Shown here one piece after another: positions 3,832 to 62,927 of a DNA stretch of 64,000 nucleotides; within the stretch, counting starts at the first letter, position 1, and the number at the start of each line of letters is the position of its first letter. The notes beneath the pieces were generated by a model. It did not search any database and had not been told where the DNA came from. It was given only the letters and a program-made list of their open reading frames with translations. The position numbers and the translations under genes are program-made. Origin of the DNA: an uncultured delta proteobacterium (GTDB taxonomy: Bacteria > Desulfobacterota > RBG-13-43-22); NCBI GenBank assembly GCA_963802945.1, contig CAWDKY010000016.1:263287-327286 (forward strand), read 5' to 3'.

Positions 3832-3955
3832 ACGAAAAAAAATTCAAGAATCCAGAATCCAGGAGCCAGAATTCAGAATAAAAACTTTTAATCGCTTGAT
3901 TCAAAGGTTTATTTTCATATTTCGTAGCGTAGTGCTTTATAGAGTATGAGAGTTA
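3832..3955 (-). repeat. ~120-bp dispersed element, copy 1 (hairpin/CACGAAAYATGAAA module plus TTCTGGA heptamer array)
   Basis: Reverse complement aligns by eye with 9138-9260 and 62464-62576. Confidence 0.8.
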
Positions 3956-3966
3956 AAAACAGAAAC

Positions 3967-4034
3967 AGAGTTCGAAGATTCAAGGATTCGAGGTTTCAAT
4001 CCCGCCAGAGGCGGGACTTGGCCCCTTGAATCCT
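3967..4034. repeat. 8-mer (GGATTCRA) array with internal hairpin and partial inverted copy
   Basis: gagttcgaagattcaaggattcgaggtttcaa, then the tcccgcc-aga-ggcggga hairpin, then ccccttgaatcct. Confidence 0.65.
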
Positions 4035-4125
4035 TTTCTTTTACCTTTTGTTTTTTCTTGACTTATTTTGGTGGGCTGGTTAAGAGGTTAAGTGTTGCTA
4101 TTCTTATAGTACTTAAAATAAGGAC

Positions 4126-4902
4126 ATGGTAATAACTCGCTTCTTTTTCGTTATCGGTCGTATGGCCTTGGCCTTCCTGTCGGAGCTGGGAGGGATTTTA
4201 CTTATGTTCTTCCGGACCCTAGCCTGGACTTTTATTCCACCCTTTCGCCTGAGAAATTTAATCAAACAGATGGAATTTATCGGGGTCAAATCCCTCTTTA
4301 TTGTCGTCCTGACCGGGACTTTTACCGGAATGGTCTTGGCCCTTCAGAGCTATCACGGCTTCAGAATGTTCGGCGGTGAAAGCCTGATGGGAGGGATTGT
4401 GGCCTTATCCATGGCCCGAGAGATGGGACCGGTGATGACCGCCCTGATGGTCAATGCCCGGGCCGGTTCGGCCATTGCCGCGGAATTAGGGAGCATGCGG
4501 GTTACCGAGCAGATCGACGCCCTGCAAATGATGGCCATCAATCCGGTCCAGTATCTTTTTGTCCCCAGGATTTGGGCCGGGGTCCTGATGCTGCCCCTGC
4601 TTACGGCCATCAATATCTTTGTAGGTATTATAGGCGGCTATTTTGTCGGAGTTGTCCTGTTAAAAATCAATTCGGGTGTGTATCTGACAAAGACGATCAA
4701 TATGATGGAGATGGCCGACCTAGTGCAGGGGATAGTCAAATCGGTCTTCTTTGGACTGATACTCACCCTGATTAGTTGTTATAAGGGATACAACACTTCC
4801 GGTGGTGCCGAAGGAGTCGGCCAGGCCACCACCGAAGCCGTAGTCATCTCTTCGGTCTGTATTTTGATCGGGACTTACGTGTTAACTTCTTTATTTTTTT
4901 GA
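4126..4902 (+). CDS. mlaE: MlaE-family MCE ABC permease
   Basis: REMGPVMTALMVNARAGSAIAAELGSMRVTEQIDAL and GGAEGVGQATTEAVV. Confidence 0.95.
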   Translation: MVITRFFFVIGRMALAFLSELGGILLMFFRTLAWTFIPPFRLRNLIKQMEFIGVKSLFIVVLTGTFTGMVLALQSYHGFRMFGGESLMGGIVALSMAREMGPVMTALMVNARAGSAIAAELGSMRVTEQIDALQMMAINPVQYLFVPRIWAGVLMLPLLTAINIFVGIIGGYFVGVVLLKINSGVYLTKTINMMEMADLVQGIVKSVFFGLILTLISCYKGYNTSGGAEGVGQATTEAVVISSVCILIGTYVLTSLFF

Positions 4903-4924
4903 AAACCATAAACCCTATGGAATG

Positions 4925-5007
4925 GAATCCAGAATTCAGGACCCGGAATACAGAAAGGGAATGGTTCTGTCTTTAATCCTGCTCCTGGCTTCTGACTCCT
5001 GGCGACT
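4925..5007. repeat. inverted pair of heptamer arrays between mlaE and mlaF
   Basis: gaatccagaattcaggacccggaatacagaa ... ctcctggcttctgactcctggcgact. Confidence 0.75.
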
Positions 5008-5014
5008 ATCTTTT

Positions 5015-5755
5015 ATGATCCGTTTAGTCAATATCAATAAATCTTTCAGAAGTCAGCAGGTCTTGCGGGATCTGAACCTGATCATTCCCTCCGGACAGAC
5101 GACCGTGATTATCGGCCGTAGTGGCGGAGGGAAGAGTGTTTTGCTTAAACATATTATGGGACTGATGCGGCCGGATAGCGGTGAAGTCTGGATCGACGAT
5201 GAGGAAATCAACCGCTTAAACCAAAGGAACCTTTACCGGGTCCGCAAGCGGTTCGGGATGCTCTTTCAGGAGGGAGCCCTATTTGATTCCATGTCCGTGG
5301 GAGAAAATGTGGCTTTTCCTATTCGGGAACATAAAAAATTGACCCCTTCTGAAATTGAAAAATTGGTTTCTGAAAAATTGGCCCTGGTGGGTTTGCGGGA
5401 TATTGAAGATAAGATGCCGTCGGAATTGAGCGGTGGCATGCGTAAGAGGGTGGCCCTGGCCCGGGCCATTGCCCTGGATCCGGATATCCTGCTGTTTGAT
5501 GAGCCGACTACGGGACTGGACCCGATCATGACCGCCGCCATAGATCAGTTAATTGTTGAGACCCAAAAGCGATTTCAAATGACCTGTGTGGTCATCAGTC
5601 ATGATATCCAGAGCGTCTTCCGAATCGCCCATAACATTTTTATGCTCTATGAAGGAAAGATCATCGAAGGAGGGACCCCGGAGATCTTTCGCCAGTCCAC
5701 CAATAAAATTATTCAGGATTTTTTATTGGGCCGAATCTCGGAGAATTTAATCTAA
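5015..5755 (+). CDS. mlaF: MlaF-family ABC ATPase
   Basis: Walker A GRSGGGKS, LSGGMRKRVALARA, DEPTTGLDP. Start placed at MIRLVN because the upstream extension is repeat-derived. Confidence 0.93.
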   Translation: MIRLVNINKSFRSQQVLRDLNLIIPSGQTTVIIGRSGGGKSVLLKHIMGLMRPDSGEVWIDDEEINRLNQRNLYRVRKRFGMLFQEGALFDSMSVGENVAFPIREHKKLTPSEIEKLVSEKLALVGLRDIEDKMPSELSGGMRKRVALARAIALDPDILLFDEPTTGLDPIMTAAIDQLIVETQKRFQMTCVVISHDIQSVFRIAHNIFMLYEGKIIEGGTPEIFRQSTNKIIQDFLLGRISENLI

Positions 5756-5773
5756 AGGCCCAGAGGAGGTCTC

Positions 5774-6814
5774 ATGGAAAAAAAAGGAGTGAGCACTGAA
5801 GTTAAAGTAGGTATTTTTGTCTTTCTCGGGTTGATTGTTCTCGGTTACATGACCCTGAAGGTTGAAAAATTTAAGTTAAAAACACAGAAAGGTTACGAAA
5901 TAGCCGCCTTCTTTGACTCGGTTTCAGGTTTGGTCGAAGGCGGTGCGGTCCAGATCGCCGGGATCGAGGTGGGCCGGGTGAAAGATATCCGTCTGACCGG
6001 CAGACAAGCCAAGGTAACCATGACGATTCGCAAAGAGATCCCGATCTATTCCGGTGCCCAGGCGAGTCTTAAAACAATGGGGGTTCTGGGAGATACCTAT
6101 GTCGAGATTAAACCGGGAAACGATAAGACCCCACGTCTCCTGGCTGGAGGAGTGATTCAGGAATCCTTTTCCCCTATAGAGCTGGGCGAAATTCTGTCTA
6201 GAGCCATGCCGGTGGTGGATAATATTCGTTCGGTGACAAAAACCTTAAGCGATGTCATCGGTACGGAAGCCGGTAAAACTGATCTCAAAGGTACGTTTGA
6301 TAATTTCCATAAAGCAACGGATGATATTCGGAGCATGACGGCGGGACTTTCCCGTGGGGAAGGAACCATGGGAAAACTAATACGGGACGACACCCTTTAC
6401 AAAGATATGAAAACCACCATGACCGGACTGAAGGATACCATGGCCCAGATTAATGAAGGCAAGGGGAGTCTTGGAAAGCTGATTAAAGATCAGGATTTTT
6501 ATGATGAAACCAAAAAGACCCTGACCAGTCTGCAAAAAGTGGCTGGGAAAATCGAATCCGGGGAAGGGTCCCTTGGGAAATTGGTCAATGACGACTCTCT
6601 GTACAAAGAGGCCAAGGAAACCGTTGCCAGTTTGAATCAAACGGCCAACAAGATCAATCAGGGGGAAGGGACCATTGGGAAATTAATCAATGACGACTCC
6701 TTGCACAAAGAGATCAAATACACCCTGCGAAGCGTGAACAAGGCCATGGAAGGACTTTCCGAGGAGGTCCCGGTGAGTATTCTGGGAACGATTATTGGGG
6801 TGATCATTAAATAA
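5774..6814 (+). CDS. mlaD: MCE/MlaD protein with long repetitive helical tail
   Basis: N-terminal TM helix, MCE domain (FDSVSGL..G..V.IAGIEVGRV, GVLGDTYVEI), four GxG[TS]xGKL..D...[YH] repeats; GGAGG RBS. Confidence 0.92.
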   Translation: MEKKGVSTEVKVGIFVFLGLIVLGYMTLKVEKFKLKTQKGYEIAAFFDSVSGLVEGGAVQIAGIEVGRVKDIRLTGRQAKVTMTIRKEIPIYSGAQASLKTMGVLGDTYVEIKPGNDKTPRLLAGGVIQESFSPIELGEILSRAMPVVDNIRSVTKTLSDVIGTEAGKTDLKGTFDNFHKATDDIRSMTAGLSRGEGTMGKLIRDDTLYKDMKTTMTGLKDTMAQINEGKGSLGKLIKDQDFYDETKKTLTSLQKVAGKIESGEGSLGKLVNDDSLYKEAKETVASLNQTANKINQGEGTIGKLINDDSLHKEIKYTLRSVNKAMEGLSEEVPVSILGTIIGVIIK

Positions 6815-6818
6815 GAAA

Positions 6819-6954
6819 GGGGTCGAGGATTCGAGGGTTCAAGGATTCAAGTGAACAAGATGATTAAGATCGGACTCAAGTTCGTTCAACGGGGCTGGGT
6901 CAGCGGAAAACCACGAAAATCGAATTCCAAGCTCCGAACTCTGAACTCCGAACT
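6819..6954. repeat. 8-mer array (GGATTCGA) and 7-mer array (ACTCCGA) after mlaD
   Basis: ggggtcgaggattcgagggttcaaggattcaagtgaa at 6819-6855; gctccgaactctgaactccgaact at about 6931-6954. Confidence 0.7.
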
Positions 6955-8458
6955 GAAAAAACAACAGATTTCTTCCATCGCTGGATATTTTCCCATAGTA
7001 TTGTTTCTACTTTCTCTGCTATGCTTCCCCGTCGGCTGTGCCCATCTTTCTTCCGACCTGGGGCCGGAAAACGTCGCCCCTTTTTTTCACATCCAAACCG
7101 ATCCGGAAAAACAGAGCCGCCGTCTGGATGCGGGCGGGCCTTTTTACTCCCAGGCGGAAGGCCCGGAAGAACGGGAATGGACGTTACGCCCTTTTTTTTC
7201 CTATAGAGAAAATCTAAAAGAACAAACTGAAGAACTGGAATATTTATACCCTATCGGCTGGTACAAAAAGACACCCGAAGGAACACTGAAGCGCCTCATT
7301 CCTTTTTTCTCTTCTTTTAAATCGGCGCCGGACCAAGAGGAAGAAGGGAAGGAAGAGCATACCGATCTTTTTCTGGTTTTTTGGGGAAAAGATAAGGCCG
7401 GGGAATCTTACGGCGGAGTGTTTCCTTTCGGAGGTTTATTTAAAGACCGGTTTGATCGGGATGAAATCCAGTTTGTGCTTTGGCCCCTTTACACCCGGAT
7501 CCGGGAAGGGGAAACACAAACGTACAATATCCTCTGGCCGATTTTTTCCCTGACTTCGGGAGGAATGCGTAGCGGATTTCGGATTTGGCCTTTTTATGGG
7601 CAGGAGAAACAAGAAGGGGAAGGGGCTTATCAAAAAATATTTTTTCTTTGGCCCCTCGGTCTTTATCAGCAAAGATATCTCGACACCGATCATCCAAAGA
7701 CCTATTTTTATATTCTCCCTTTTTATCTTTCCGAGCGGAGTCCCAACGAAAATAAAAAGATTTTTCTCTGGCCTTTTTTTAATTTTTACTTCGAAAAACA
7801 TTTTAACTACTTTCAGGTAGATTTCCCCTGGCCGATCTTTCAATATGCCCGGGGTGAAAAGGCTGAGGCCTTTAAGCTCTGGCCCATAATAACCTACCGT
7901 AAAGTGGATGACCGGGAGAGGATGTACTTCCTCTGGCCTCTGTTTTATCAGGAAAAAGAAGAAAATGACGAAAAAGACGAGGTTTTGAATCTATTTCTTT
8001 ATGTCATCAAATTCCATCAGGTCTATTATAAACAAGAGGACCGCTGGGAAAGGGTTTCCAAGTTTTGGCCCTTCTTTCGCCACGCCGAAGACGGAAGAGG
8101 GATGGTCCATTTTTATTTCCCGGCCCTAATGCCGGCCGATTGGGAAGGGCTTGAGCGGCATTACGGGATGCTTTTCCGGGTCTTTGAATACTACCAGGAC
8201 GGGAAAGGCAAAGAGGTTTCCAAATTTCTTTGGGGTTTGTATTATCACCAGAAACAAAAAGACCTGAATAGGATCGACGTCGGTTTCCTCTTCAATTATC
8301 AAAAAGAGAAAGAGACGGTCCAACTCTCTTTTTTGAAAGGATTGTTGGGGTATCGCCGAGACGGACCCAAACGCCAATTGAAGATTTTTTATTTCCCTAT
8401 TTCCTGGGAAGAGAGGGAAGAGACTGAGAAATCACCCGTGTCCCCTCCGGGGGGATGA
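6851..8458 (+). CDS. uncharacterised aromatic-rich WP-repeat protein, putative lipoprotein/outer-membrane partner of the MCE system
   Basis: 535-aa ORF with a hydrophobic stretch ending FPVGC (lipobox-like) and nine WP motifs, mostly 15-20 aa apart. True start uncertain. Confidence 0.75.
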   Translation: MNKMIKIGLKFVQRGWVSGKPRKSNSKLRTLNSELKKQQISSIAGYFPIVLFLLSLLCFPVGCAHLSSDLGPENVAPFFHIQTDPEKQSRRLDAGGPFYSQAEGPEEREWTLRPFFSYRENLKEQTEELEYLYPIGWYKKTPEGTLKRLIPFFSSFKSAPDQEEEGKEEHTDLFLVFWGKDKAGESYGGVFPFGGLFKDRFDRDEIQFVLWPLYTRIREGETQTYNILWPIFSLTSGGMRSGFRIWPFYGQEKQEGEGAYQKIFFLWPLGLYQQRYLDTDHPKTYFYILPFYLSERSPNENKKIFLWPFFNFYFEKHFNYFQVDFPWPIFQYARGEKAEAFKLWPIITYRKVDDRERMYFLWPLFYQEKEENDEKDEVLNLFLYVIKFHQVYYKQEDRWERVSKFWPFFRHAEDGRGMVHFYFPALMPADWEGLERHYGMLFRVFEYYQDGKGKEVSKFLWGLYYHQKQKDLNRIDVGFLFNYQKEKETVQLSFLKGLLGYRRDGPKRQLKIFYFPISWEEREETEKSPVSPPGG

Positions 8459-9107
8459 ATTCAAAGCGACTCCCGGCTAAGGGCACTTTGGTCTCCACCC
8501 GGCTGAAACGAAACCTGGTCCCGTCTCCCATCAGGTTTTCAAACGTAAATTCCAGGGGAAGGAAGGTTGTTTTGGATATACGGACCATGATTTGCTGTAA
8601 ATCCGGCTGAGGGTTTTTGGGTTTTAACAGCAACTGGTGAAAAGGGGCTTCCTCCGAAATCGTGGCATTCAACCGAACCGAGAAATTTTTTTCCAAGCCT
8701 CCCAAACCGGAGAGGAAATCGATGATCGGTTTGATCTGCAGATAATAATCTTTAAGCCGATACACATTAACCGCCTTTTCCTCGGGTTGATACCACCAGA
8801 CCTTGTCGCCGTTACAGATCAATTGCTCGGGCCGGGGTTTTTTCTGATCCAGGCGGAGTTTGTTCGGAGAAAGGAACGAAAGCTGTCCCTCGGCCTGTAG
8901 GGATGAGGAAGGCAGCTTGGAAGCAATTTTAGGCACAATTTCCCGGATATAATCGGCCTGAAAGGTCTTGGTAGCGGCAAAACGGTCTTTTAATTGAGAC
9001 AGGATAAAGTTCAAATCCTCTCCCGGCTGAGCCTGAACCTGATTCGTCAGACCACACAAGAAGATGCCTATCAAGGCCGGTAATAATTGTTCAACCCGTT
9101 TCATCAA
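8397..9107 (-). CDS. lolA: outer-membrane lipoprotein carrier LolA family protein
   Basis: Signal peptide, TFQADY, GQLSFLSPNKLR, NGDKVWWYQPE and C-terminal FEFIPPEG; directly downstream of ftsK. Confidence 0.88.
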   Translation of the reverse strand: MMKRVEQLLPALIGIFLCGLTNQVQAQPGEDLNFILSQLKDRFAATKTFQADYIREIVPKIASKLPSSSLQAEGQLSFLSPNKLRLDQKKPRPEQLICNGDKVWWYQPEEKAVNVYRLKDYYLQIKPIIDFLSGLGGLEKNFSVRLNATISEEAPFHQLLLKPKNPQPDLQQIMVRISKTTFLPLEFTFENLMGDGTRFRFSRVETKVPLAGSRFEFIPPEGTRVISQSLPSLPRK

Positions 9108-9137
9108 ATATTCCTTTAAAAGATAAGTTTTTCTTTT

Positions 9138-9260
9138 AAAGCCTCACGCCCCTATGGAGTGGGGCACCACGAAACATGAAATAAACTTAGCATAGATCGA
9201 TTAAGAGTTTTATTCTGAATTCTGACTCCTGGATTCTGGATTCTTGATTTTTATTTTCGT
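9138..9260 (+). repeat. ~120-bp dispersed element, copy 2
   Basis: gcctcacgcccctatggagtggggcaccacgaaacatgaaat ... ttaagagttttattctgaattctgactcctggattctggattcttga. Confidence 0.8.
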
Positions 9261-11439: not shown

Positions 11440-11475
11440 AGGATGAGTCCTCTGTCATTTTAATAAAATAAAACC

Positions 11476-11606
11476 GGAGTATTGGAGTGATGGAGAAACA
11501 GGCCATGAGAGTATTGGAAAAACCCATTGAGCTGTATTTTGTGATGGGAAAAACTTCCCTTTTCCAACACCCCAACACTCCATCACTCCAATATCCCAGC
11601 ACTCCA
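11476..11606. repeat. inverted pair of 8-mer arrays (GGAGTRTT / AAYACTCC) between rnj and ftsK
   Basis: ggagtattggagtgatggag ... ccaacactccatcactccaatatcccagcactcca. Confidence 0.8.
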
Positions 11607-11612
11607 TTTCTT

Positions 11613-13295
11613 TTACATCGGTATGATCAAAGGCAGCACCACCGGTCTGCGTTCGAGAGAATGATCAAAGAATCGCCTCAGGGTCTTGCGGATCTCTTCC
11701 TGGATGTCGGACCAATTTTTGTTATCCTCCTTTTGCCTGAGGTATAAGATCTCCAGGACCAGTTCCTTGGCCTCCCGGATCAATTCTGGGTGCTCCTCTT
11801 CGGAAATAAATCCTCGGGAAATGATGTCCGGCCCGGATAGAAGTTCTCCGGTCTGGTTGTTCAGCACCACCTGAACCACCACCAGTCCTTCATTAGAAAG
11901 GTGGCGCCTGTCCCTCAAGATTAGATTGCCCACATCCCCAACGCCTTTGCCGTCCACAAAGACGCGGCCCACTTCCACCTGATCAAAAATCCGGCCTCCT
12001 TCTTGATCAAAGCGTATGACCTGGCCGTCTTCAGCCAGGATCAGATTTTCTTTGGGGATGCCGATCTTGCCGGCCAATTGGGCATGTTTGACCAGATGGC
12101 GGTATTCCCCATGAATGGGAATGAAGAATTTGGGCCGGGTCAGGTGGAGCATTAATTTCAATTCTTCCTGATTGGCATGACCGGAAACATGGATCTCCGA
12201 AACTTTTTCGTATATCACCTCAGCCCCAAAGCGGTACAAATTATTAATTAATCCGTCGATGGCCTTTTCGTTGCCGGGAATGAAGCGGGAAGACAGGATG
12301 ACCGTATCCCCTTTTTTGATCTTGATCTGTTTATGATCGTCCCGGGCGATCCGGGTTAAAGAGGACATGGGTTCAGCCTGACTGCCGGTGGTGATAAGGG
12401 TTACTTGGGAATCGGGGAGCTGAAGCATCTCCCCCAGGGTCAGTTCCATCCCCTGGGGGACAGTTAGAATACCCAATTCCTGGGCGATCCGGCAATTGGT
12501 AATCATACTTTTTCCGTTGAAGGCCACTTTGCGCTGATAGCGGGCGGCCGAGTTGATCACCTGCTGGATCCGATGGATATTGGAAGCGAAGACAGCCACA
12601 ATCACCCGGCCTTCACATTCGCGCATGATCTGGTCCAGGGTCTCGCCGATCCGTTTTTCCGGCAAGGTATGGCCTTCCCGTTCGACATTGGTGGAATCCG
12701 ACATCAGGGCCAATACACCTTTTGCCCCATAGGCGGCAAAGGTATTGATGTCTGTGATCGCGCCATCCAGAGGGGTCTGGTCGATCTTGAAATCCCCTGA
12801 ATGGATCAGGGTGCCTACTGGGGTTTGAATCGCCAGGCCCAGACCTTCCGGGATGCTGTGGGTGACCCGGATGAATTCCAGTTGGAAGGGTCCGATAGTC
12901 AGGGATTCTCTTGGGGCAACCATCCTCAGATCACATTGCTCCAGGATACGATGTTCTTTCAATTTTTCCTTGACCAGTTCCAGGGTAAACCTGGAGCCGT
13001 AAACCGGGACCGAAATCTCTTTAAGCAGGAAAGGCAGGGCCCCGATATGGTCCTCATGGCCGTGGGTCAGGACAATGGCCCGGATCCGTTCTTTGTTTTT
13101 TAATAAATAGCTGAAATCCGGGATGACAATATCGACGCCCAGCATATAGTCTTCAGGGAACATCAGCCCGGCATCGATGACCAGGATATGCTCTTCATAT
13201 TGAACCAGGAGCATGTTCAGCCCGATCTCTCCCAAACCCCCAAGGGGGATGATATCCAAAAAAGGAGGGGCTTGCCAACGTGTTTCTAATTCCAT
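11613..13295 (-). CDS. rnj: ribonuclease J
   Basis: PLGGLGEIGLN, THGHEDHIG, HSIPE, GDFKIDQTP, HVSGHA, PIHGEYRH. Confidence 0.96.
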   Translation of the reverse strand: MELETRWQAPPFLDIIPLGGLGEIGLNMLLVQYEEHILVIDAGLMFPEDYMLGVDIVIPDFSYLLKNKERIRAIVLTHGHEDHIGALPFLLKEISVPVYGSRFTLELVKEKLKEHRILEQCDLRMVAPRESLTIGPFQLEFIRVTHSIPEGLGLAIQTPVGTLIHSGDFKIDQTPLDGAITDINTFAAYGAKGVLALMSDSTNVEREGHTLPEKRIGETLDQIMRECEGRVIVAVFASNIHRIQQVINSAARYQRKVAFNGKSMITNCRIAQELGILTVPQGMELTLGEMLQLPDSQVTLITTGSQAEPMSSLTRIARDDHKQIKIKKGDTVILSSRFIPGNEKAIDGLINNLYRFGAEVIYEKVSEIHVSGHANQEELKLMLHLTRPKFFIPIHGEYRHLVKHAQLAGKIGIPKENLILAEDGQVIRFDQEGGRIFDQVEVGRVFVDGKGVGDVGNLILRDRRHLSNEGLVVVQVVLNNQTGELLSGPDIISRGFISEEEHPELIREAKELVLEILYLRQKEDNKNWSDIQEEIRKTLRRFFDHSLERRPVVLPLIIPM

Positions 13296-13318
13296 TTATA
13301 TCCTACCTTTTATCTCTC

Positions 13319-13495
13319 TGAATCCAGAATTCAGAAGCCGGAAGCCAGGATAGCAGTCAGATACGATTCAAGCAATTTACTTACTTCCTCAAGTTGATTC
13401 ATCAGAGTTGAGTAATCTCCATAGCCAGTTCTTGAAAATCCTTTGCAGGTTTTCTTTTCATTCTGGCTTCTGACTCCTGGCTTCTGGATTCTGAA
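13319..13495. repeat. inverted pair of heptamer arrays enclosing a four-helix-bundle gene remnant
   Basis: tgaatccagaattcagaagccggaagccagga (left) and ttctggcttctgactcctggcttctggattctgaa (right). Confidence 0.8.
13331..13461 (-). pseudogene. internally deleted four-helix-bundle protein gene (TIGR02436 / 23S-IVS-protein-like)
   Basis: ATG overlapping the plsC stop gives MKRKPAKDFQEL, joined out of frame to GYGDYSTLMNQLEEVSKLLESYLTAILASGF*. These resemble the N- and C-termini I recall for this family. Confidence 0.7.
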
Positions 13496-14195
13496 CCTCA
13501 AGATTCTCCTCAATCGCTTCTCTGACTTTCTGCATCAGGATGTCGGCATTTTTTTTATGATACCCTTCGGTGGGGATCGGGTTTCCCAAAACAATGCTTA
13601 TGGTCCCCGGGGTTATCCAGAATCCACCCTTGGAGAGCACCCGGGCGCTTCCCCTTATGGCGATAGGAACAATGGGTTTTTGAGATTTAATAGCCAGAAA
13701 AAACAACCCTTGTTTAAACTCACCCAACTGATCGGTTTTTTGTCGGGTCCCTTCCGGGAAAATGACAATCGAAGTCCCTTCATTGACCTTTCGGGCGGCT
13801 TGCATGAGGCTTTGATAAGCCTGTTTGGCATTGGAACGGTTGATAGAGATATAACCAGCCCGTTTCATGGCCCATCCGAACAAGGGGATCTTAAAATAAC
13901 TTTCCTTGGCCATCCAGCGAAATTGAATCGGGAGTCTGGAAAGAAGTACTGGGATATCATAAGCACTTCGATGGTTGGCGGCAAAGATATAAGACTGGCC
14001 CGGAACGAGGACTTCCGGGTTGAATACTTCGGTCCGAACCCCGCTAATCATCAAAACTACCTTGGCCCAGAAGGCAGCAATCCGATGCAATCGGTTCCCA
14101 CTCGAATCAAATAAAGAGACAACCAGGGCATACAAACTTAACCCTATGGTCAGGATAAAATAACAAGGTATGATAAAAAAAGTCCGTAAATACAT
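13458..14195 (-). CDS. plsC: 1-acyl-sn-glycerol-3-phosphate acyltransferase
   Basis: ANHRSAYD (HxxxxD), IFPEGTR, PIVPIAI. Last residues are encoded by the heptamer array. Confidence 0.93.
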   Translation of the reverse strand: MYLRTFFIIPCYFILTIGLSLYALVVSLFDSSGNRLHRIAAFWAKVVLMISGVRTEVFNPEVLVPGQSYIFAANHRSAYDIPVLLSRLPIQFRWMAKESYFKIPLFGWAMKRAGYISINRSNAKQAYQSLMQAARKVNEGTSIVIFPEGTRQKTDQLGEFKQGLFFLAIKSQKPIVPIAIRGSARVLSKGGFWITPGTISIVLGNPIPTEGYHKKNADILMQKVREAIEENLEVQNPEARSQKPE

Positions 14196-32038: not shown

Positions 32039-32650
32039 TCAGGCGGTAGCCATTTCCGTTAGGAGTTTTTCTATTCGCCGAGGATTGCCAATTCCGCAGA
32101 CACAGGGCTTGATTAGCATTTGAGCTCCTTCTTCAGTGGTCATCTTCCGCCGTTTGATTTTTTTTACGATGTCTTTCACCAGATACTGAGAGATCAGGGC
32201 ATGTCCGCATTGGGTGATGATCTCAAGGGTTTTTTCATCGGGGAGTTTTTTCGTATTGCCGAAAATACCCAGGGAGACATTATAGGTATGTTCGTTCAGA
32301 TCGTTGGCCCGGCAAAGACAACGCACGTCGGAAAAGAGACCGGACAGAACCATGGATATCCCCAGTTTTTTGGTTTTGACTTCCGCTATCAAGTTGCGGA
32401 CATCATCCTTAATATTAAAAACAGCAGTGATTATCCCGCCGCGGGGAATAAGTTTTTTCAGTTGTTCCTCATTAAGCCCCATGGGCGCACCGATAATATT
32501 GGCGGGTTTATATTTTAAGACCGCATCGATAAGGGGAAACATCCCGGGAAGCTTTTGATCTTTTTCCTGCTGGTGTACCATGAAAAGTACTACGATTTCC
32601 TCTCCCGGTCTGGTTTCTGAGAGACCTCTGCGGTTTAAGGTGTGGGTCAT
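32039..32650 (-). CDS. uncharacterised Cys/His-motif protein
   Basis: 203 aa, AGGAG RBS; MTHTLNRRG, QCGHALI, PCVCGIGNP. Confidence 0.8.
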   Translation of the reverse strand: MTHTLNRRGLSETRPGEEIVVLFMVHQQEKDQKLPGMFPLIDAVLKYKPANIIGAPMGLNEEQLKKLIPRGGIITAVFNIKDDVRNLIAEVKTKKLGISMVLSGLFSDVRCLCRANDLNEHTYNVSLGIFGNTKKLPDEKTLEIITQCGHALISQYLVKDIVKKIKRRKMTTEEGAQMLIKPCVCGIGNPRRIEKLLTEMATA

Positions 32651-32679: not shown

Positions 32680-32752
32680 AGTTCGGAGTTCGGAGTTCAG
32701 AGTTAAGAGTTTGGAGTAATATGATTTTACTCCGAACTAAATACTCCGAACT
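32680..32752. repeat. inverted pair of heptamer arrays (AGTTCGG / ACTCCGA)
   Basis: agttcggagttcggagttcagagttaagagtttggagt ... actccgaactaaatactccgaact. Confidence 0.8.
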
Positions 32753-35973: not shown

Positions 35974-36166
35974 GAGGCTGTGTCGTAATGGCAGATAGAG
36001 CCGTCAAGGCCGTCATGCCGGCGAAAGCCGGCATCCAGACGTCGTCCCGGCGAAAGCCGGGAACCAGACCCATATCCCCTGGATTCCCCCGGATCGAGTC
36101 CGGGGCAGGCTCCTCGTCGCGCTTCGCTTGCACGGAATGACAAAAATATAATTGCGACACAGTCTC
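35974..36166. mobile_element. MITE-like element, family B, containing REP-like hairpins
   Basis: 16-bp TIRs GAGGCTGTGTCGTAAT / ATTGCGACACAGTCTC (14/16); internal GTCATGCCGGCGAAAGCCGGCATCCAG ... CTGGATTCC ... GGAATGAC. Confidence 0.78.
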
Positions 36167-52802: not shown

Positions 52803-52866
52803 CCCAGTAAAAAACCAATGAGGGTTCAATTTCGAGCCCGGTAGATAGGGCAAGGAATAAACCTAT

Positions 52867-53118
52867 TAACAGGTTGCTGAAAAAGGCCCATCTATCCCGC
52901 CAACGGCGGGATTGCCCTTATCCCTCCCCGCCTTTCGGCGGGGCAGGCTTATTGCGACGTACTTCTATCTCCTAGGTACGCCTCATTCCTCGGAATTTCT
53001 TCGCGTAAAGGGCAACGCTCAGTCCCACCCCTTCGGGGCGGGTTCCCGGTTTCGGGATGCCTTGTATCTGGACCTTTTTGACCAACCTGTAAAAATAGAG
53101 TTTTTCCGCATCTTGTTA
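52867..53118. mobile_element. MITE-like element, family A copy 2, with nested insert
   Basis: Collinear with 22348-22537 plus about 55 extra bases near 53000-53058. Confidence 0.8.
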
Positions 53119-53291
53119 ATGGTTAAACCGTGAAAAGGAGGAGAGACCGATGGAACTGGGAGATATTAAATGTATCGGCACCGTGGGCGCAGAGCCTTTG
53201 TAGAGAGACGGGAACCTCATTTTAGGGGAAAATGAAATACATTTATGGCCGATTAATTGATAACTGCAAAAACAAATTAAAGGAGGAAAAC

Positions 53292-54581: not shown

Positions 54582-54594
54582 GAGAATAATCAAG

Positions 54595-56498: not shown

Positions 56499-56511
56499 GG
56501 AATGGAGACAC

Positions 56512-57243: not shown

Positions 57244-57943
57244 AGTTGAAAAAGTCAATATTGCCTATGGATCAATCCAGGTAGTCTATGATCTGGATTT
57301 TTATGTCAAGGAAAGTGAGTGCGTCGCCTTACTGGGTTCAAACGGTGCAGGGAAGACGACTATTCTCAATGCCATCTCCAGCGTTGTACCCCGTAGGTCG
57401 GGAGACATCTATTTCCAAGATGTTCGGTGTGCGGTAAATAATCCGGGACTTCATTATGAATGGGGCATTGTCCAAGTTCCCGAGGGGGGAAAAATTCTCC
57501 CCTATATGACCGTTCAAGAAAATTTGATCATGGGGGCTGTCTGCAGGAATGAGGCCTGGAAAAAGAGAAAAGATACATTGACCTGGGTCTTTGAAATACT
57601 TCCTAGACTGAAGGAGCGCTTCAATCAGGAAGCGCGCCTTTTGAGCGGCGGAGAGCGACAAATGCTCGTGGTAGGCCGAGGCCTGATGGCCCTCCCCAAA
57701 CTTCTTATGATTGATGAGCCCTCTCTGGGTCTGGCTCCAAAGACAACTTTAGAAATATTTAATACGATGAAAATTCTTCGCGAGCAAGGCTTAACCATTC
57801 TCTTATCGGAACAGAATGTTTCCCAAGCTCTCAAAGTTGCCTCACGAGGCTATGTTCTGGAAAACGGGCGTATTGTTATGGAAGGAGCAAGCGATGAGCT
57901 TATCAATAACCCACACATCAAAACAGCTTATCTGGGCATGTAG
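57236..57943 (+). CDS. ABC ATPase (LivF-like)
   Basis: LGSNGAGKTT, VPEG, LSGGERQM, DEPSLGLAP, EQN, RGYVLENG. Confidence 0.92.
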   Translation: MLKVEKVNIAYGSIQVVYDLDFYVKESECVALLGSNGAGKTTILNAISSVVPRRSGDIYFQDVRCAVNNPGLHYEWGIVQVPEGGKILPYMTVQENLIMGAVCRNEAWKKRKDTLTWVFEILPRLKERFNQEARLLSGGERQMLVVGRGLMALPKLLMIDEPSLGLAPKTTLEIFNTMKILREQGLTILLSEQNVSQALKVASRGYVLENGRIVMEGASDELINNPHIKTAYLGM

Positions 57944-57955
57944 GGGACAAGGACA

Positions 57956-59299
57956 ATGAAAGAAGATTACTTTTCATTTACCCAACAACTTTTTGACCGA
58001 TTTCAAATATCCGATAAGCCTGAGGCCTTGAAGGGGATCAGAGTACTGGATCTATCCCGCATTATCTATGGTCCGATGGTGACCAAATGGCTGGCCTTAT
58101 TTGGGGCGGAAGTGATCAAGGTTGAGGAACCAGAAACGGGTGATGATTGGCGAATCGGCACCTACTGGGGGAAGTACTGGAAGGATTCTTCACCCTATTT
58201 CCAGTCTATCAACCCCAATAAATATTTTGTGGCCATAAATCTCAAAGAGCCGAAGGGAAAGGACCTGATTAAAGCCCTGGCGGAAAAATCAGACGTAGTT
58301 GTCGAAAATTATAGGGCCGGCTTAGCTGAAGCTTGGGGACTTGGATATATGACTCTGAGCAAAATTAATCCAAAGATCGTTTATATCAGCTGTAGCGGTT
58401 ACGGGCAGTGGGGACCGCTCCGTTATTTCCCGAGTTGGGATATCATTGCCCAGTCAAGGTCAGGCGTAGCCAGGACGACCGGCTTTTCCGAAGATAATAC
58501 CTTTAAGCTTCCGGATTATTACGGTGATTTTTTCCCGGCTATACTCGGTACTGTTGGTGTTTTGTCGGCGCTCTATCACCGTGAGCGTACCGGCAAGGGA
58601 CAATTTATTGATATGGCTCAAACAGAAGCCTTAATCCGCGCCATGCCTGATTGGACCTACATGAGCCTTACGGGTGAAGAACTCGGACCCACCGGAAATT
58701 TCGATCCGACCATGGCGCCCTCCGGAATATTCAAAACAAAAGATGAAGCTTTTATTGCTATTGCCGTCGCAACCAAAGAACAATTCATGGCTTTGGCTGA
58801 ATGTATGGGGGCTCTCGAGCTTACAAAAGACAAAAGGTTTGCGGAAACGTCCCAGAGATTAAAAAAGGAGAATGCGACTCTTATTAATGAAATCCTGGCC
58901 CAATGGGTAAGCCAACATAAAGAAGACGAGATCATTGCCTGGGCTAAAGAAAAAGGATTTGCAGCAGCACACGTCATGGACGACTTGGAATTAGTCCAGG
59001 ATCCCTGGAGGAAAGAACGGGGCAGCATCGTCGAATTTGAGGATGGCATGTATGGTCGCGCTCAATGGGCAGGTCCTCCTGTTTCCTTAAGTGAAACGCC
59101 TGGCAGACTCAAACAGCTTACACGTCCCGTCGGCTATCACAATCGGTATGTATTCAAAGAGGTTCTCGGTCTGTCTGAAGAAGATATCCTCGAATTGGAA
59201 AAAAAGAGGATCATCGGCTATTGGGAAAACCGAGTCGGCACACGCCCGCCAAGCTATGTCGATATGGATAAAGACGAAATATTCAACTACCAAAAATAG
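57956..59299 (+). CDS. class III CoA-transferase (CaiB/BaiF family), subunit 1
   Basis: LKGIRVLDLS, GAEVIKVE, DVVVENYR, SGYGQ.GP, WDIIAQ (catalytic Asp position), RERTGKGQ.ID. Confidence 0.92.
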   Translation: MKEDYFSFTQQLFDRFQISDKPEALKGIRVLDLSRIIYGPMVTKWLALFGAEVIKVEEPETGDDWRIGTYWGKYWKDSSPYFQSINPNKYFVAINLKEPKGKDLIKALAEKSDVVVENYRAGLAEAWGLGYMTLSKINPKIVYISCSGYGQWGPLRYFPSWDIIAQSRSGVARTTGFSEDNTFKLPDYYGDFFPAILGTVGVLSALYHRERTGKGQFIDMAQTEALIRAMPDWTYMSLTGEELGPTGNFDPTMAPSGIFKTKDEAFIAIAVATKEQFMALAECMGALELTKDKRFAETSQRLKKENATLINEILAQWVSQHKEDEIIAWAKEKGFAAAHVMDDLELVQDPWRKERGSIVEFEDGMYGRAQWAGPPVSLSETPGRLKQLTRPVGYHNRYVFKEVLGLSEEDILELEKKRIIGYWENRVGTRPPSYVDMDKDEIFNYQK

Positions 59300-59317
59300 T
59301 TAGGATGCCAAGAAACG

Positions 59318-60667
59318 ATGAAAAAGCAACAGGTCTTTTCAAAGCACATGACCGGCAAGAAGACGCAAGAGCAACTCTTGCAGTTTAACCGCCTTCTAAC
59401 TGAAATGATGGGTTCTCTTGGGAGCAAAGGGGGGGCGCTTCACCAGATTCGAGTTCTGGAGATCAGCTATGCCAATTTCCCGGGACTGATTTGCGGAGCC
59501 CTGTTTGGAGAAATGGGGGCCGAAGTGATCAAAATCGAACCTCCCCAAGGGGATTCGGCCCGGGAAGCTACCTATAATGGTGTTTATATTCAGGGTGTAG
59601 GCATTCCTTTTGTTATGGAAAGCCGAAATAAACTTTTGATTACTATTGATTTTGAAGATGAACAAGGGATATTGAACCTAAAAAAGCTGGCTAATAAAGC
59701 CGATATTATCATCGATGCGATGAAACCCGGGTATCTCGATGAAATCGGACTCGGTTACAGGCAGATCTCGGGGACCAATCCGCGCCTTATCTATATTGCC
59801 ATTTCCCCCTATGGACATTTTACTTCGAAGGGAAAAGATTTCCGCAATATACCCGACACAGATTTAACGGCACAATCGGAATCGGGTTTTCCGGCCTTAA
59901 CGGGGAATCCCAAGGCTCCTGAACCGCTCAATTATCCGGTGAGAGCCGGCATCTGGGCAGCAAATTATATGAGCGCAGTCGTCGGAGTTGCCGGTGTAAT
60001 TACCGCACTTTTGCATAGGGAAAAAACAGGTCAAGGGCAAATGATTGATCTGGCAACCTATGATGCTTTATCAACCTGGCAGGGATACTCCTATGTATGG
60101 GGTTCTACAACCAAAAAACCAAGGACCAGGGTCGGAAATTATGATTGGGGCCTCTTTCCTTATGGTTATTACAAGGCGAAAGACGGCTATGTAACTGTTG
60201 CCTCAGGACATGATGCCGCTTTCAGAGGTCTTTTAAAAATTCTCAAGCGATGGGATCTGGAAAATGACTGGAGATTTATTTTTGACAGAATTGCGGATGA
60301 CCCGGAAAAAATGGACGAATTGGAAAAGGAGATAAAAAAAGAGCTCGTCAAACATACACGGAAAGAGCTGACTTCAAAAACTCTGGCTTATAGTGCCAAA
60401 GCTGCGCGGGACAAGCTGCGGGCCAAAGGTTTTCCGATCGTAGTTGAAACCTTATCGCCTCGGGAGGTTTTGAAGGAAGAACATTGGAAAATCCGTGAGA
60501 CTTTTTTAGAACTTCCTGTCAAAGATAATGGTAAGATTACCATCCCGGCACTGCCCCCTCGAATGTCGGATTCCCCATCAAAAACAAAATGGATCAAGAT
60601 CGGCCTCGGTGAAGACAACGATGCCGTTTCCGAGGAGTACGGCTTGGCTTTAACAAAAAAGAAGTAG
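59318..60667 (+). CDS. class III CoA-transferase, subunit 2 (divergent)
   Basis: IRVLEI, MGAEVIKIEPP.GD, ISPYG, TDLTAQ, REKTGQGQMIDL, PYGYYKAKDG. Confidence 0.9.
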   Translation: MKKQQVFSKHMTGKKTQEQLLQFNRLLTEMMGSLGSKGGALHQIRVLEISYANFPGLICGALFGEMGAEVIKIEPPQGDSAREATYNGVYIQGVGIPFVMESRNKLLITIDFEDEQGILNLKKLANKADIIIDAMKPGYLDEIGLGYRQISGTNPRLIYIAISPYGHFTSKGKDFRNIPDTDLTAQSESGFPALTGNPKAPEPLNYPVRAGIWAANYMSAVVGVAGVITALLHREKTGQGQMIDLATYDALSTWQGYSYVWGSTTKKPRTRVGNYDWGLFPYGYYKAKDGYVTVASGHDAAFRGLLKILKRWDLENDWRFIFDRIADDPEKMDELEKEIKKELVKHTRKELTSKTLAYSAKAARDKLRAKGFPIVVETLSPREVLKEEHWKIRETFLELPVKDNGKITIPALPPRMSDSPSKTKWIKIGLGEDNDAVSEEYGLALTKKK

Positions 60668-60798
60668 TAAATAAAGGCTGTTGATTCGCCTGGACGGCGG
60701 TCATGCCAGCCAATATTATTCTCTTCGCGAGTTTATCTCTTTCTGCCCGGATTCACCTTAACTCTCAGGGATTCAGAAAGTGACTTTTCATTAACAGG

Positions 60799-60903
60799 AT
60801 GCGGGAGAAAGAGGACATGGAAAACCTGGCCCGCTATTTCATCCGGGTCTCTTTCTTATTGGAACAAATGACCTATTTCACAGTAGAGTCAGCAATGGTT
60901 TAG
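60799..60903 (+). mobile_element. short IS91-like transposase remnant
   Basis: MENLARYFIRVSFLLEQMTY resembles the ENLARYIIRASFSQERMTY segment I recall from IS91-family transposases. Confidence 0.5.
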
Positions 60904-61046
60904 CTTTTTTTTGCACACTTCATCCAGTAATCGTTAATTCTCGGAACGACCTATTTAGAAGAGTTGTACACTTCATGCCGCATATTTGAAACTGTCCGTC
61001 AAATCAAATACCAGTTAAGATACGTCATCCAATTTTTAGGATTTTT

Positions 61047-61553
61047 TTATCTGCCGGCATCGATTGCTTTGGACATAAAGAGGACCTCGAACGGGAGATG
61101 AGGGAAGGTGGCTTTCTTTTGGTCAACGAACCCGATCTTCTTGTACCAATCCTTCAGTTCAATATGAGCGGCAATGATGCCGATGTCTACTTGGTGTGCA
61201 CCTAATGCCCTGGCCTCGTCAAGAACGTGATCAACAAGTGCCCGGCCATAACCTCGGCGTTGTTGGGCCGGAAGGACGGCCAGTCGTTCGAGATAGCATA
61301 CTTCGGGGTTGGCCTGTTCCAAGGCCACGCAACCGCAGGGAAGCCCTTCCGACTCAAGGATAAAATACCGGGCTCCCTTGGCCAAGGCATCTTGGATCCA
61401 GTCGGCTCTGCAGTTGGAGGGGTGAGTCGGGCAGTTGGCTTCGCTCAGGCTGAAACGGACGGCCACCTCATAAAACGCCTTCCTGATAATCTCGACCATC
61501 CTGGGAATGTCTGCTTCATTGGCTTTTCTGATTGTGATTTCGGGGGTCATCAT
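61047..61553 (-). CDS. GNAT acetyltransferase
   Basis: YLERLAVLPAQQRRGYGRALV, WYKKIGF. Confidence 0.88.
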   Translation of the reverse strand: MMTPEITIRKANEADIPRMVEIIRKAFYEVAVRFSLSEANCPTHPSNCRADWIQDALAKGARYFILESEGLPCGCVALEQANPEVCYLERLAVLPAQQRRGYGRALVDHVLDEARALGAHQVDIGIIAAHIELKDWYKKIGFVDQKKATFPHLPFEVLFMSKAIDAGR

Positions 61554-61630
61554 CCAAAATATTTTCTCTTTAATCGATCTTCCTGATTTTTTCTTAAGGC
61601 AGGACGCCAGCCAAAAATGTTCCTACTATT

Positions 61631-62443
61631 TCACTTCGGCGATTTAGTATACCGCCGGAGAAAGGATTTAACCATGTTTTCTGAAGAAAATTGCTGTTGG
61701 GTTCTTTGAGCAGTGGGATTTTCTTCCCCGAAGACCCGCTGTCGTATAGCGGCTGTATTCAGGCCTTTTTTATACAGGGCTTCAACCCTTTTGCCCAAAG
61801 CCTCAAGGTGCACGATAGCCTTTCCCAGCTTTTCCATGGGTTCAATGATGACATTGCTTGGTGCCGGGAAAAGGATGTGGGGCTTTAAATCCCGTATAGT
61901 CTTAAGGTCTTCAATGATCTGCCATTGGTCATCCATGGGGCGACAAACAACGGGTTTCGTACCGACGTAAAGGTCGCCGGAAAAGAGCCATCGGCGGGTG
62001 GGTTCGAAAAGACAGATATGATCGCGGTCATGTCCCGGCGTGGGGATAACCTCAAATGAGAACTTTTCCGTGTTGATGCTATGACCCAGAGGATTAACCT
62101 GGCTGGGAATCGGGTATCCCCAGGCCTCTTCCTGGTAAGGATAGAGATTGGCCGGTTTATTGATTTTGTCCACTGAGAGCGGAGGTGCGAAGATCTCGAC
62201 ACCGTAACGTTCCTGGAGGAATTTGTTGGCCGCAATATGATCTTCGTGAAAGTGGGTGTTAACAACGATCCGGACCTGCTTATCTTTGAAAAAATCGGCC
62301 AGTTCTTCAGCCGTGTGGGCAGGGCCGCTGTCGATCAGTAAGCCGTCCACTAAGTAAGCGGACACGGTGGGGGCAGGAATTAATTCGGGGTATCTGCAAA
62401 GCCTGATCTGCAGGACATCTTCGTATTGTTGCGTTGCAATCAT
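61631..62443 (-). CDS. metallo-beta-lactamase fold hydrolase
   Basis: LIDSG, THFHEDH, TPGH..DH, LFSGD. Confidence 0.9.
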   Translation of the reverse strand: MIATQQYEDVLQIRLCRYPELIPAPTVSAYLVDGLLIDSGPAHTAEELADFFKDKQVRIVVNTHFHEDHIAANKFLQERYGVEIFAPPLSVDKINKPANLYPYQEEAWGYPIPSQVNPLGHSINTEKFSFEVIPTPGHDRDHICLFEPTRRWLFSGDLYVGTKPVVCRPMDDQWQIIEDLKTIRDLKPHILFPAPSNVIIEPMEKLGKAIVHLEALGKRVEALYKKGLNTAAIRQRVFGEENPTAQRTQQQFSSENMVKSFLRRYTKSPK

Positions 62444-62463
62444 TTGAATAATTGCTTTGGACT

Positions 62464-62576
62464 AAACCCTCAAGTCCCTATGGAGCATCACGAAATATGA
62501 AAATAAACCATAGAATGAAAAAATTAAGAGTTTATATTCTGAATTCTGACTCCTGGATTCTGGATTCTTGATTTCG
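62464..62576 (+). repeat. ~120-bp dispersed element, copy 3
   Basis: ccctcaagtccctatggagcatcacgaaatatgaaaataaacc ... ttaagagtttatattctgaattctgactcctggattctggattcttga. Confidence 0.8.
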
Positions 62577-62583
62577 TTTCACC

Positions 62584-62829
62584 TCATCCCCCTTCCATGA
62601 TGGGCAGTAATAGTACCTGATCCCCTTCCTTTAAGATGGTATGAAGGAAAACATTCTTGTGATTGACCATAATGGCCATCTGTTCGGTTTTTAAGGGGAG
62701 GTTGTTAAATTTCACACTGAGTGATTTCAGCAAATCTGCCACCGTGGCCTCATCGACTAAATCAACGGATGCTTGATCAGTCCCGGTGATTTGACGTAGA
62801 TAGGAAAAGAATTTAACGGTTACGTGCAT
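62584..62829 (-). CDS. MoaD/ThiS family sulfur carrier
   Basis: VTVKFF..LR, LKEGDQV.LLP..EGG C-terminal double glycine; follows aor. Confidence 0.9.
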   Translation of the reverse strand: MHVTVKFFSYLRQITGTDQASVDLVDEATVADLLKSLSVKFNNLPLKTEQMAIMVNHKNVFLHTILKEGDQVLLLPIMEGG

Positions 62830-62846
62830 GATTAAAAAAAGAAAAA

Positions 62847-62927
62847 AGTTCTGAGTTCAGAGTTTAAAGTTCGGAGAAAATCATTTTCATATTCCAAGGC
62901 CTCCAAAGTTTGGGTTTTGGAGGCCTT
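62847..62927. repeat. heptamer array (AGTTCRG) plus 12-bp hairpin between aor and the MoaD-like gene
   Basis: agttctgagttcagagtttaaagttcggag; aaggcctccaaa/tttggaggcctt at 62896-62927. Confidence 0.65.

Follow-up and report, generated by a model that had tools for sequence, protein, structure and literature searches.

We analyzed a window of 64,000 nucleotides (nt; contig CAWDKY010000016.1 of assembly GCA_963802945.1) from an uncultured delta proteobacterium of the GTDB lineage Desulfobacterota, RBG-13-43-22. Between its protein-coding genes, e.g., mlaE, mlaF, mlaD, plsC, rnj and a moaD-like gene, lie tandem arrays of words of 7 or 8 nt, several of which face a reverse-complementary array and so form the arms of a hairpin. 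A preliminary description of this DNA had listed at least ten arrays from the unit families TCCAGAA, AGTTCGG, GGATTCRA and GGAGTRTT, and had proposed that they are states of a mobile or recombinogenic cassette, or else RNA structures for transcript processing. Every one of these arrays lies where it was reported, as judged by Tandem Repeats Finder (TRF) and by direct reading. We conclude, with a probability that we put at roughly 0.7, that the arrays are arms, gene-less copies and relics of a family of cassettes of the intervening-sequence (IVS) type, which carry a gene of the PF05635/TIGR02436 family. The window elements and all six four-helix-bundle (4HB) genes of the source genome are located between or beside protein-coding genes, and none is in a helix of 23S rRNA.

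Heptamer and octamer arrays in the window and the genome

The window arrays located by TRF have a period of 7 or 8 and 3-5.5 copies (Table 1); the pairs at 3969-4035 and 4919-5002 (the latter degenerate), as well as the left arm at 11476-11519, were read directly from the sequence. In what follows, G000 is the source genome (4,369,355 bases in 72 contigs), G004-G012 are congeners, and L numbers designate loci.

A whole-genome repeat scan, which had been suggested as a check, found that arrays of at least three copies number 41 for period 6, 335 for period 7, 110 for period 8, 27 for period 9 and 8 for period 10. Periods 7 and 8 are therefore in large excess over 6, 9 and 10, and the 7- and 8-nt arrays of this genome occur above chance. 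The 335 heptamer arrays reduce to 95 words when rotation and strand are collapsed; the commonest word accounts for 26 arrays, and the commonest words include AACTCCG, AACCTTG and AATTCAG. Crude open reading frame (ORF) calls account for 80% of the genome; located entirely outside them, i.e., intergenic, are 259 of the 335 heptamer arrays, 83 of the 110 octamer arrays and 74 of 282 arrays for period 9. Merging left 479 arrays, of which 243 have a reverse-complement partner (score of at least 10) within 300 nt and 38 a direct partner. When the array was instead read backwards or complemented only, partners were found for 14 and 17 of the 479, respectively. The genome contains 144 inverted pairs, i.e., the feature of terminal inverted repeats is present, and the spacer is shorter than 60 nt in 106 of them.

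We studied placement using 126 hairpins with a spacer of at most 150 nt. Six of these fall within crude ORFs, and genes were called on both sides of 115. The median distance from a hairpin to the stop codon facing it is 19.5 nt, so the elements sit just 3' of stop codons, in agreement with the earlier suggestion that they insert without breaking operons. The co-directional preference noted with it is present but modest: neighbours are co-directional for 94 of the 115 hairpins (82%), compared to 72% of all adjacent gene pairs, and divergent for eight (7%, against a background of 14%). Arms are ~29 nt long in heptamer hairpins and ~27 nt in octamer hairpins, and are thus unaffected by unit size. 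Predicted stems have a median energy of -31 kcal/mol with z below -3 in 93 of 97 hairpins, although this is partly so by construction. The expectation that the window pairs can fold back on themselves was borne out for four of six, which beat shuffled sequences, while the other two are decayed (z of -0.6 each).

Cassettes with a four-helix-bundle gene

A cassette consists of a small 4HB gene in the loop of a hairpin, whose arms are 25-33-nt tandem arrays of a 7- or 8-nt word. In G011, the gene between TCCAGAA arms matches PF05635 (23S_rRNA_IVP) and TIGR02436 ("four helix bundle protein"). Its product is related to the proteins in PDB entries 2gsc, from Xanthomonas, and 2rld, and has a weak kinship to Avd, a protein of diversity-generating retroelements (DGRs). 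The family is also found in Bacteroides thetaiotaomicron, which served as a control. All 14 genomes of the genus have PF05635 matches, 3-15 per genome. There are six in the source genome, and five of these six are between inverted arrays, with a different word in each case.

This arrangement is general within the genus. We sampled 70 of the 111 matches listed, i.e., the 30 best-spread loci and 40 further loci by descending score. An inverted flank score of at least 12 is found at 63 of these 70 4HB genes, and one of the seven that fall short, L040, is interrupted by the end of its contig. As a control, 28 of 1105 other ORFs of 90-170 amino acids in the source genome reach the same score. A period-6-9 array is present on at least one side of 62 of the 65 near-full-length genus cassettes. 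In other phyla, we scanned the best 80 of 598 relatives in named species genomes, excluding the genus itself; 78 had enough flanking sequence, and 67 of these 78 genes pass the inverted flank score, versus 11 for direct repeats. The labels of their records include Bacteroidota, Acidobacteriota, Planctomycetota, Elusimicrobiota, candidate-phyla bacteria and Firmicutes, among others.

Each 4HB subfamily is accompanied by its own word. Clusters of related proteins hold related words while occupying 2-5 distinct genomic sites, and the AGTTCGG and CGTTCGG cassettes, whose words differ by one base, encode related proteins.

The preliminary description had envisaged a varied cargo between the arms. 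Its cassette reading is right in outline, but wrong on this point, as PF05635/TIGR02436 is the sole recurrent cargo. The 4HB domain is detected in 6 of 51 inverted pairs with a spacer of at least 45 nt, while none of 255 control segments scores at least 5 bits. Other long spacers contain host genes that lie between two separate elements, e.g., the gene for ribosomal protein L31, or a nested small repeat. Because long spacers are accounted for by 4HB genes, host genes or nested repeats, the cargo is one gene family and not a varied set.

Several features of individual cassettes were observed in passing. In TCCAGAA cassettes (e.g., C29:192757-193168), an irregular arm unit, CCAGGAG, gives an AGGAG motif 13 nt upstream of the ATG. 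This motif is in the arm, which ends with the ATG itself, and the stem would therefore mask both signals. The final codons of the gene extend into the right arm. The sixth PF05635 match of the source genome (C16:41197-41409) is weak (38 bits) and is located in a 249-amino-acid frame without flanking arrays; frames of ~240 amino acids like this one occur in G007, G009 and G011, and the domain may be fused in them or take another form. The small repeat nested in several hairpin loops (C39:54668-54987, C8:11735-12420 and others) is of the GTCATTCC..GGAATCC type and gives rise to spurious "VIPAxAGIQ" frames; within the window, this type is represented by a 29-nt tandem pair at 36011-36094.

Gene-less copies and their turnover

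The arrays that lack a gene are tied to the cassettes by their words. We compared array words of the source genome to the arm words of 68 cassettes from other species of the genus, excluding the source genome's own two loci. The consensus word is identical to a cassette arm word for 197 of 343 heptamer arrays (5% for shuffled words) and for 32 of 136 octamer arrays (0% for shuffled words). Three of the four window families match words of the sampled cassettes exactly or with one mismatch, and a pattern search revealed a gene-bearing copy of the fourth, GGAGTRTT, in G005 (L191). Thus, every one of the four window families has a gene-bearing cassette in the genus. The earlier claim of one architecture built from different unit words is supported. 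The GGAGTRTT family is distributed unevenly, with 96 matches in G011, 30 in the source genome and 25 in G012; five genomes have fewer and six have none, and the reversed pattern, used as a control, has no match in any genome.

A single window element has a 4HB ORF, though a deleted one, in the loop of a stem of inverted arms, and it descends visibly from a gene-bearing cassette. The element at 13319-13495 retains both arms, the leader, and approximately the first 12 and last 30 codons of the gene, with ~235 nt gone. Its intact counterpart by alignment is the G011 cassette L042, which has the same TCCAGAA arms and lies in the orthologous plsC-rnj spacer. This comparison upholds the claim that one pair still holds a gene remnant, even though a 4HB profile hidden Markov model gives the remnant only 3.9 bits. 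The term "emptied cassette" therefore suits 13319-13495; it may also suit the other gene-less hairpins, most of which are without a detectable gene remnant.

Certain gene-less forms are copied as a whole. The arrays at 3845, 9212 and 62537, which had been taken for free arrays, are each the 5' part of one ~140-nt element, of which blastn and alignment found at least 13 copies with 80-89% identity. The array part of this element corresponds to the left arm plus the region of the start codon in TCCAGAA cassettes (ATAAAAAC in the element, ATGAAAAG in the cassette). Some gene-less hairpins also resemble MITEs (transposable elements of the miniature inverted-repeat type), in that their loops are conserved over many loci. 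Gene-less GGATTCAA hairpins have at least two types of conserved loop, one found at ~7-8 loci and including window positions 4000-4017, and the other with 19 copies. The first of these loops, TCCCGCC-N4-GGCGGGA, recurs within GGATTCRA arms at ~7-8 further loci (14 strand-wise matches).

The ~140-nt element also includes a core hairpin repeat, which has 67 copies in the source genome. Conserved halves, ATTTTCATGTTTCGTGGTGCC ... GGGCATGAGGGTTTA..ACGAAA, surround a variable stem-loop. The lower stem depends on G-U pairs, so the repeat would be strand-specific if it acts as RNA. A called array is within 70 nt of 25 of the 67 core copies, versus 115 of 2000 random intergenic segments. The core repeat has no Rfam match, promoter consensus or terminator consensus, and RNAalifold found no consensus structure in the match columns of the 67 repeats because the variable stem sits in insert columns.

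Table 1. Array-containing elements of the window. Arrays are those located by TRF; z compares the predicted RNA fold to 200 shuffled sequences.
Position	Strand	Element	Arrays (TRF)	Details
3826..3963	+	Copy of ~140-nt dispersed element	3847-3879	TCCAGAA-type array 3843-3879, then core hairpin repeat 3907-3963 (+); TRF, blastn and nhmmer core match
3969..4035		Gene-less GGATTCRA hairpin		Inner loop TCCCGCC-N4-GGCGGGA at 4000-4017; fold of 3966-4036 -35.4 kcal/mol, z -5.9
4919..5002		Decayed TCCAGAA hairpin		Between mlaE stop and mlaF start; z -0.6
6818..6851		GGATTCRA array, partner arm absent	6818-6851	Immediately 3' of mlaD stop
6872..6955		AGTTCGG hairpin	6921-6954	Left arm 6872-6892 decayed, right arm 6921-6955 intact; z -0.6
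9129..9255	-	Second copy of ~140-nt element	9212-9249	Array 9212-9249, core hairpin 9129-9185 (-)
11476..11607		GGAGTRTT octamer hairpin	11563-11606	Between rnj stop and next gene; fold -50.9 kcal/mol, z -3.9
13319..13495	-	Internally deleted TCCAGAA 4HB cassette	13320-13348, 13461-13493	Arms 13320-13348 and 13461-13493; fold -60 kcal/mol, z -5.3
32680..32752		Gene-less AGTTCGG hairpin	32680-32717	Fold -26.6 kcal/mol, z -5.7
62456..62575	-	Third copy of ~140-nt element	62536-62573	Array 62536-62573, core hairpin 62456-62508 (-); fills spacer between moaD-like gene and next gene
62847..62876		AGTTCRG array, partner arm absent	62847-62876	Upstream of moaD-like gene; TRF and sequence

Two further window elements have arm units identical to those of gene-bearing cassettes: the unit of the AGTTCGG hairpin behind mlaD is that of L039 and L057, and the AGTTCRG unit at 62847 is one of those of L039. 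The hairpin behind mlaD has better-kept homologues in L170, L172 and L173. It is an element separate from the GGATTCRA array that precedes it, so the arrays at 6819 and 6931 do not form a common pair. The loop of this hairpin (6851-6960; L164, L170, L172, L173) has a conserved short frame, M-x-x-x-G-V/L-K-x-V/F-x-R-G/S, which in the source genome continues without a stop into the lipoprotein gene downstream; the hairpin may therefore provide the start of that gene. Separately, a tRNA gene at 2951-3023 (-) is the single Rfam match of the window at gathering thresholds.

The preliminary description inferred filled, partly emptied and empty states, and proposed comparing orthologous intergenic sites. 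This comparison finds the same spacer empty, filled or occupied by another family across congeners, i.e., between sister species, one and the same spacer has gained, lost or exchanged a cassette or a gene-less derivative of one. The partly emptied state is that of 13319-13495 relative to L042. We compared the spacers flanking rnj in eleven congeners whose RNase J proteins are 85-94% identical: behind rnj, the spacer is empty in four of the eleven and holds other unit families in five, with hairpins of at least four unrelated words among the loci. The mlaE/mlaF spacer is empty in 5 of 14 loci; five have TCCAGAA hairpins, with homologues of the hairpin at 4919-5002 in four congeners, and the last four contain different families or composites. 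In the spacer behind mlaD, elements of at least four families are present at 13 of 14 loci, and the remaining locus is masked at the site; the GGATTCRA array at 6818-6851 is also present in six congeners (L164, L170, L172, L173, L175, L176), with other families in six more. Upstream of the gene at 32039-32650, all seven loci are filled, by three families; at the site of 32680-32752 there are AGTTCGG hairpins in G008 (L181) and G005 (L178) and other families in four congeners. Behind moaD, the spacer is empty in two of four readable relatives, being ~30 nt in G008 and G004 (L186, L187).

Gene-bearing cassettes also vary in the guaB-guaA spacer, where ten genomes of the genus have 4HB cassettes of three word families (C14:159786-160251 in the source genome, L035, L044, L045, L047, L051, L055, L057, L062, L071), with a nested cassette in G006. 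The source-genome copy lacks its 5' end, and an in-frame stop interrupts the copy in G012.

We also searched DNA contigs of four peat-metagenome runs, whose sources are relatives (mostly 90-95% alike) and not the same strain. The elements change length by whole units: all four runs have exactly one extra 8-nt unit at 4023, and one run has a one-unit insertion at 11583. A clean pair of empty and filled alleles was not found in the four runs, and the joint of 13253-13503 seen in two of them has unknown letters inside.

Origin of the arrays and relation to known systems

We consider that the following mechanism would best account for these observations. In the host transcript, the two arms would pair into a stem, which RNase III may cut, as in the intervening sequences of 23S rRNA; the source genome encodes an RNase III gene. 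If excision proceeds as it does in rRNA, an insert between cistrons would be harmless. In the TCCAGAA family, the stem might also conceal the ribosome-binding site and start codon of the 4HB gene. A role of the hairpins in transcript processing, the other possibility raised in the preliminary description, is plausible by this analogy. Between species, an element would be replaced at the same site when the conserved genes on either side of it undergo homologous recombination, as the occurrence of different families at one conserved spacer suggests interspecies exchange of this kind. Spread to new sites would take place without a transposase, possibly aided by the 4HB protein.

It is important to emphasize that a number of observations weigh against this reading. 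Descent from a gene-bearing cassette is direct for one window element, and for the rest we infer it. A profile of 65 proteins of the genus is blank in 45 of the 51 spacers of at least 45 nt, although this is a weak test, given that the known remnant scores 3.9 bits. The 26 AGTTCGG arrays have the word in common, but their loops differ. The source genome lacks the cognate gene for large word families such as AGTTCGG (26 arrays) and GGAGTNNT (30 matches), and in G011, with its 96 GGAGTRTT matches, no PF05635 match adjoins any of them among the matches listed. A uniformly basic character of the 4HB domains, which would hint at nucleic-acid binding, was not found among 65 domains: the median isoelectric point is 7.9, and it is below 6.5 in 22 of the 65. 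Large word families without a resident cognate gene, together with this mixed charge, speak against the idea that the system simply depends on a nucleic-acid-binding protein resident in the genome. Inspection by eye of filled versus empty orthologous spacers revealed neither a target-site duplication nor defined ends; because the ends of the elements are fuzzy, a short duplication could escape notice. Finally, the excess of co-directional neighbours is weak (82% versus 72%), and the pairs at 4919-5002 and 6872-6955 fold no better than shuffled sequences.

Some of these observations would be expected if the arrays were merely local simple-sequence repeats, which arise and grow in place by polymerase slippage, are immobile, form hairpins that are tolerated or favoured, and merely provide places where 4HB genes settle. 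Whole-unit insertions and deletions between related populations, a word family such as AGTTCGG whose copies have no common loop, the scarcity of gene remnants in most hairpins, and the finding of neither target-site duplications nor a transposase (RVT_1 being the sole enzyme family searched) all agree with slippage, an idea that is also cited for Xanthomonas arrays, including their 70-75 convergent pairs (PMC4692102). We nevertheless consider this explanation unlikely. It gives no reason for 57% of heptamer arrays to carry the exact arm word of a cassette from another species, as opposed to 5% with shuffled words, nor for the same protein subfamily and word to occur together at 2-5 genomic sites. 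It also leaves unexplained the gene-less subtypes with conserved loops at 13-19 loci, the range of 0-96 matches to GGAGTRTT among congeners, and spacers that have unrelated words in sister species and are empty in others. The subfamilies with conserved loops and the bursts in single lineages favour copying for some families at least. Another explanation, to which we give still less credence, is that the hairpins, with their origin being of lesser importance, are selected by the host as RNA elements, acting as processing sites or in the manner of repetitive extragenic palindromes (REPs) and bacterial interspersed mosaic elements (BIMEs) by stabilizing upstream messages, setting the ratios of cistrons or ending transcription. 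Location just 3' of stop codons within operons, strong stems (with the caveat on their construction given above), arms that stay at 25-33 nt across unit sizes and the filling of the same spacers in many species could all reflect such selection. However, some sister species with the same genes have no element in these spacers (5 of 14, 4 of 11 and 2 of 4 loci in the spacers compared above), words turn over freely, and two of the window hairpins are decayed. Moreover, only 23 of 97 co-directional hairpins have four T in a row behind them, so the majority cannot be regarded as ordinary terminators, and pattern scans at three window elements found no promoter- or terminator-like site.

The elements might instead be moved by a transposase encoded elsewhere, e.g., a Y1/HUH enzyme acting on hairpins, with the 4HB gene as a passenger. 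Inverted arms, multi-copy gene-less subfamilies with conserved interiors, and bursts of copy number in single lineages would agree with such a transposase. We regard this as very improbable, since a matching enzyme would be needed for each of dozens of unrelated arm words, while the arms themselves are tandem repeats of variable length without defined ends and target-site duplications were not seen. Moreover, the one constant companion of the arms across many phyla is the 4HB gene. Like MITEs, the elements are short and non-coding with inverted arms and many copies, and some subfamilies have conserved interiors and single-lineage bursts; at least 13 copies of the ~140-nt element have whole interiors in common, as do copies of the two GGATTCAA loop types, whereas the loops of the 26 AGTTCGG arrays differ. 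Unlike MITEs, they have arms that are tandem repeats changing by whole units; a target-site duplication or defined termini were not seen by eye. No cognate transposase turned up, although RVT_1 alone was searched and no search was aimed at transposases.

Several other systems share part of this architecture. REPs are single imperfect palindromes of 20-40 nt, with one or a few families per genome, and are linked to REP-associated tyrosine transposases (RAYTs). The elements studied here resemble REPs and BIMEs as intergenic palindromes of high copy number behind stop codons inside operons, but differ in that their arms are word repeats of many families. Avd is related to the 4HB proteins in fold and family, yet the NCBIfam Avd model matches them with E-values of 2e-6 to 3e-4, or 21-28 bits against a cut-off of 80. 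In contrast to DGRs, the 4HB genes are alone inside hairpins; no RVT_1 reverse transcriptase was found in the source genome, and template or variable repeats were not seen.

Tandem heptamers without an associated gene are known from several bacteria. In cyanobacteria, for instance, the short tandemly repeated repetitive (STRR) sequences are heptamers of this kind, intergenic and abundant. Rehm et al. (2015; PMC4692102) describe tandem heptamers of Xanthomonas (GGGAATC) and Nostoc (GGGGAYT), which are intergenic, typically have ~4 units, and keep their position while varying in length between related species; in Xanthomonas there are 70-75 convergent pairs per genome. The main text of that paper treats a single G-rich word family, reads it as quadruplex-forming DNA, makes no link to a gene and does not mention XCC0516. 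The arrays of our source genome are likewise over-represented, intergenic, typically of ~4 units, partly in convergent pairs, and constant in position but not in length between related species, but comprise ~95 heptamer words, which are mostly not G-rich and are tied to 4HB genes. Neither GGGAATC nor GGGGAYT is among the 40 commonest heptamer words of the source genome, and the GGGAATC pattern occurs in 1 of 401 genomes of the class reached from two 4HB loci labelled Gammaproteobacteria. Similarly, MacGregor (2015; PMC4679880) describes TAACTGA direct repeats in Beggiatoaceae, cyanobacteria and Bacteroidetes, located immediately upstream of start codons; of 170 sets, a single one is an indirect repeat. 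Both these repeats and ours are abundant intergenic tandem heptamers, scattered unevenly over the phyla and not known to spread by any particular route; approximately half of the arrays in our source genome, however, are inverted pairs behind stop codons.

The closest known system is the IVS of 23S rRNA in Coxiella burnetii and Leptospira (Warrier et al. 2016, PMC4990558), in which, as in our cassettes, the loop of a long stem contains a PF05635/S23p 4HB ORF. As described for C. burnetii, this stem has tandem GACAGAT heptamers whose number varies between strains, and the IVS is excised by RNase III and is regarded as selfish and horizontally acquired (PMC4990558). The corresponding features here are the arrays beside 62 of 65 cassettes and the insertions and deletions of whole units in related populations. 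Unlike the 23S IVS, however, the cassettes are located between protein-coding genes and have dozens of word families per genus, and gene-less hairpins dominate, with ~480 arrays versus six genes in the source genome; cleavage by RNase III here would follow only by analogy. In the papers searched, the rRNA form and the bare repeats alone are described: we found none that connects PF05635 genes outside rRNA to flanking word-repeat arms, or gene-less heptamer arrays to such genes, though other papers or supplements may hold such a connection.

A broader hypothesis can be put forward tentatively, and we consider it unlikely as a whole. The 4HB pentamer might be the word-specific factor of a transposase-free element, with each subfamily recognizing its own 7-8-nt word and promoting the copying or retention of hairpins, and the cassettes might be the source of the heptamer excess, including the Xanthomonas and cyanobacterial repeats and the rRNA IVS. 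The cassette interpretation itself would turn three puzzles into one testable system, namely the excess of heptamers in many bacteria, the function of the 4HB family and the origin of the rRNA IVS. The family annotated as "23S rRNA intervening-sequence protein" is very large, and the source genome offers a clear view of the gene-less side of it, with its ~480 arrays, its six genes and words common to cassettes of sister species. For annotation, the cassette interpretation means that intergenic hairpins derive from such elements by the hundreds in each genome, and are not necessarily terminators or regulatory sites.

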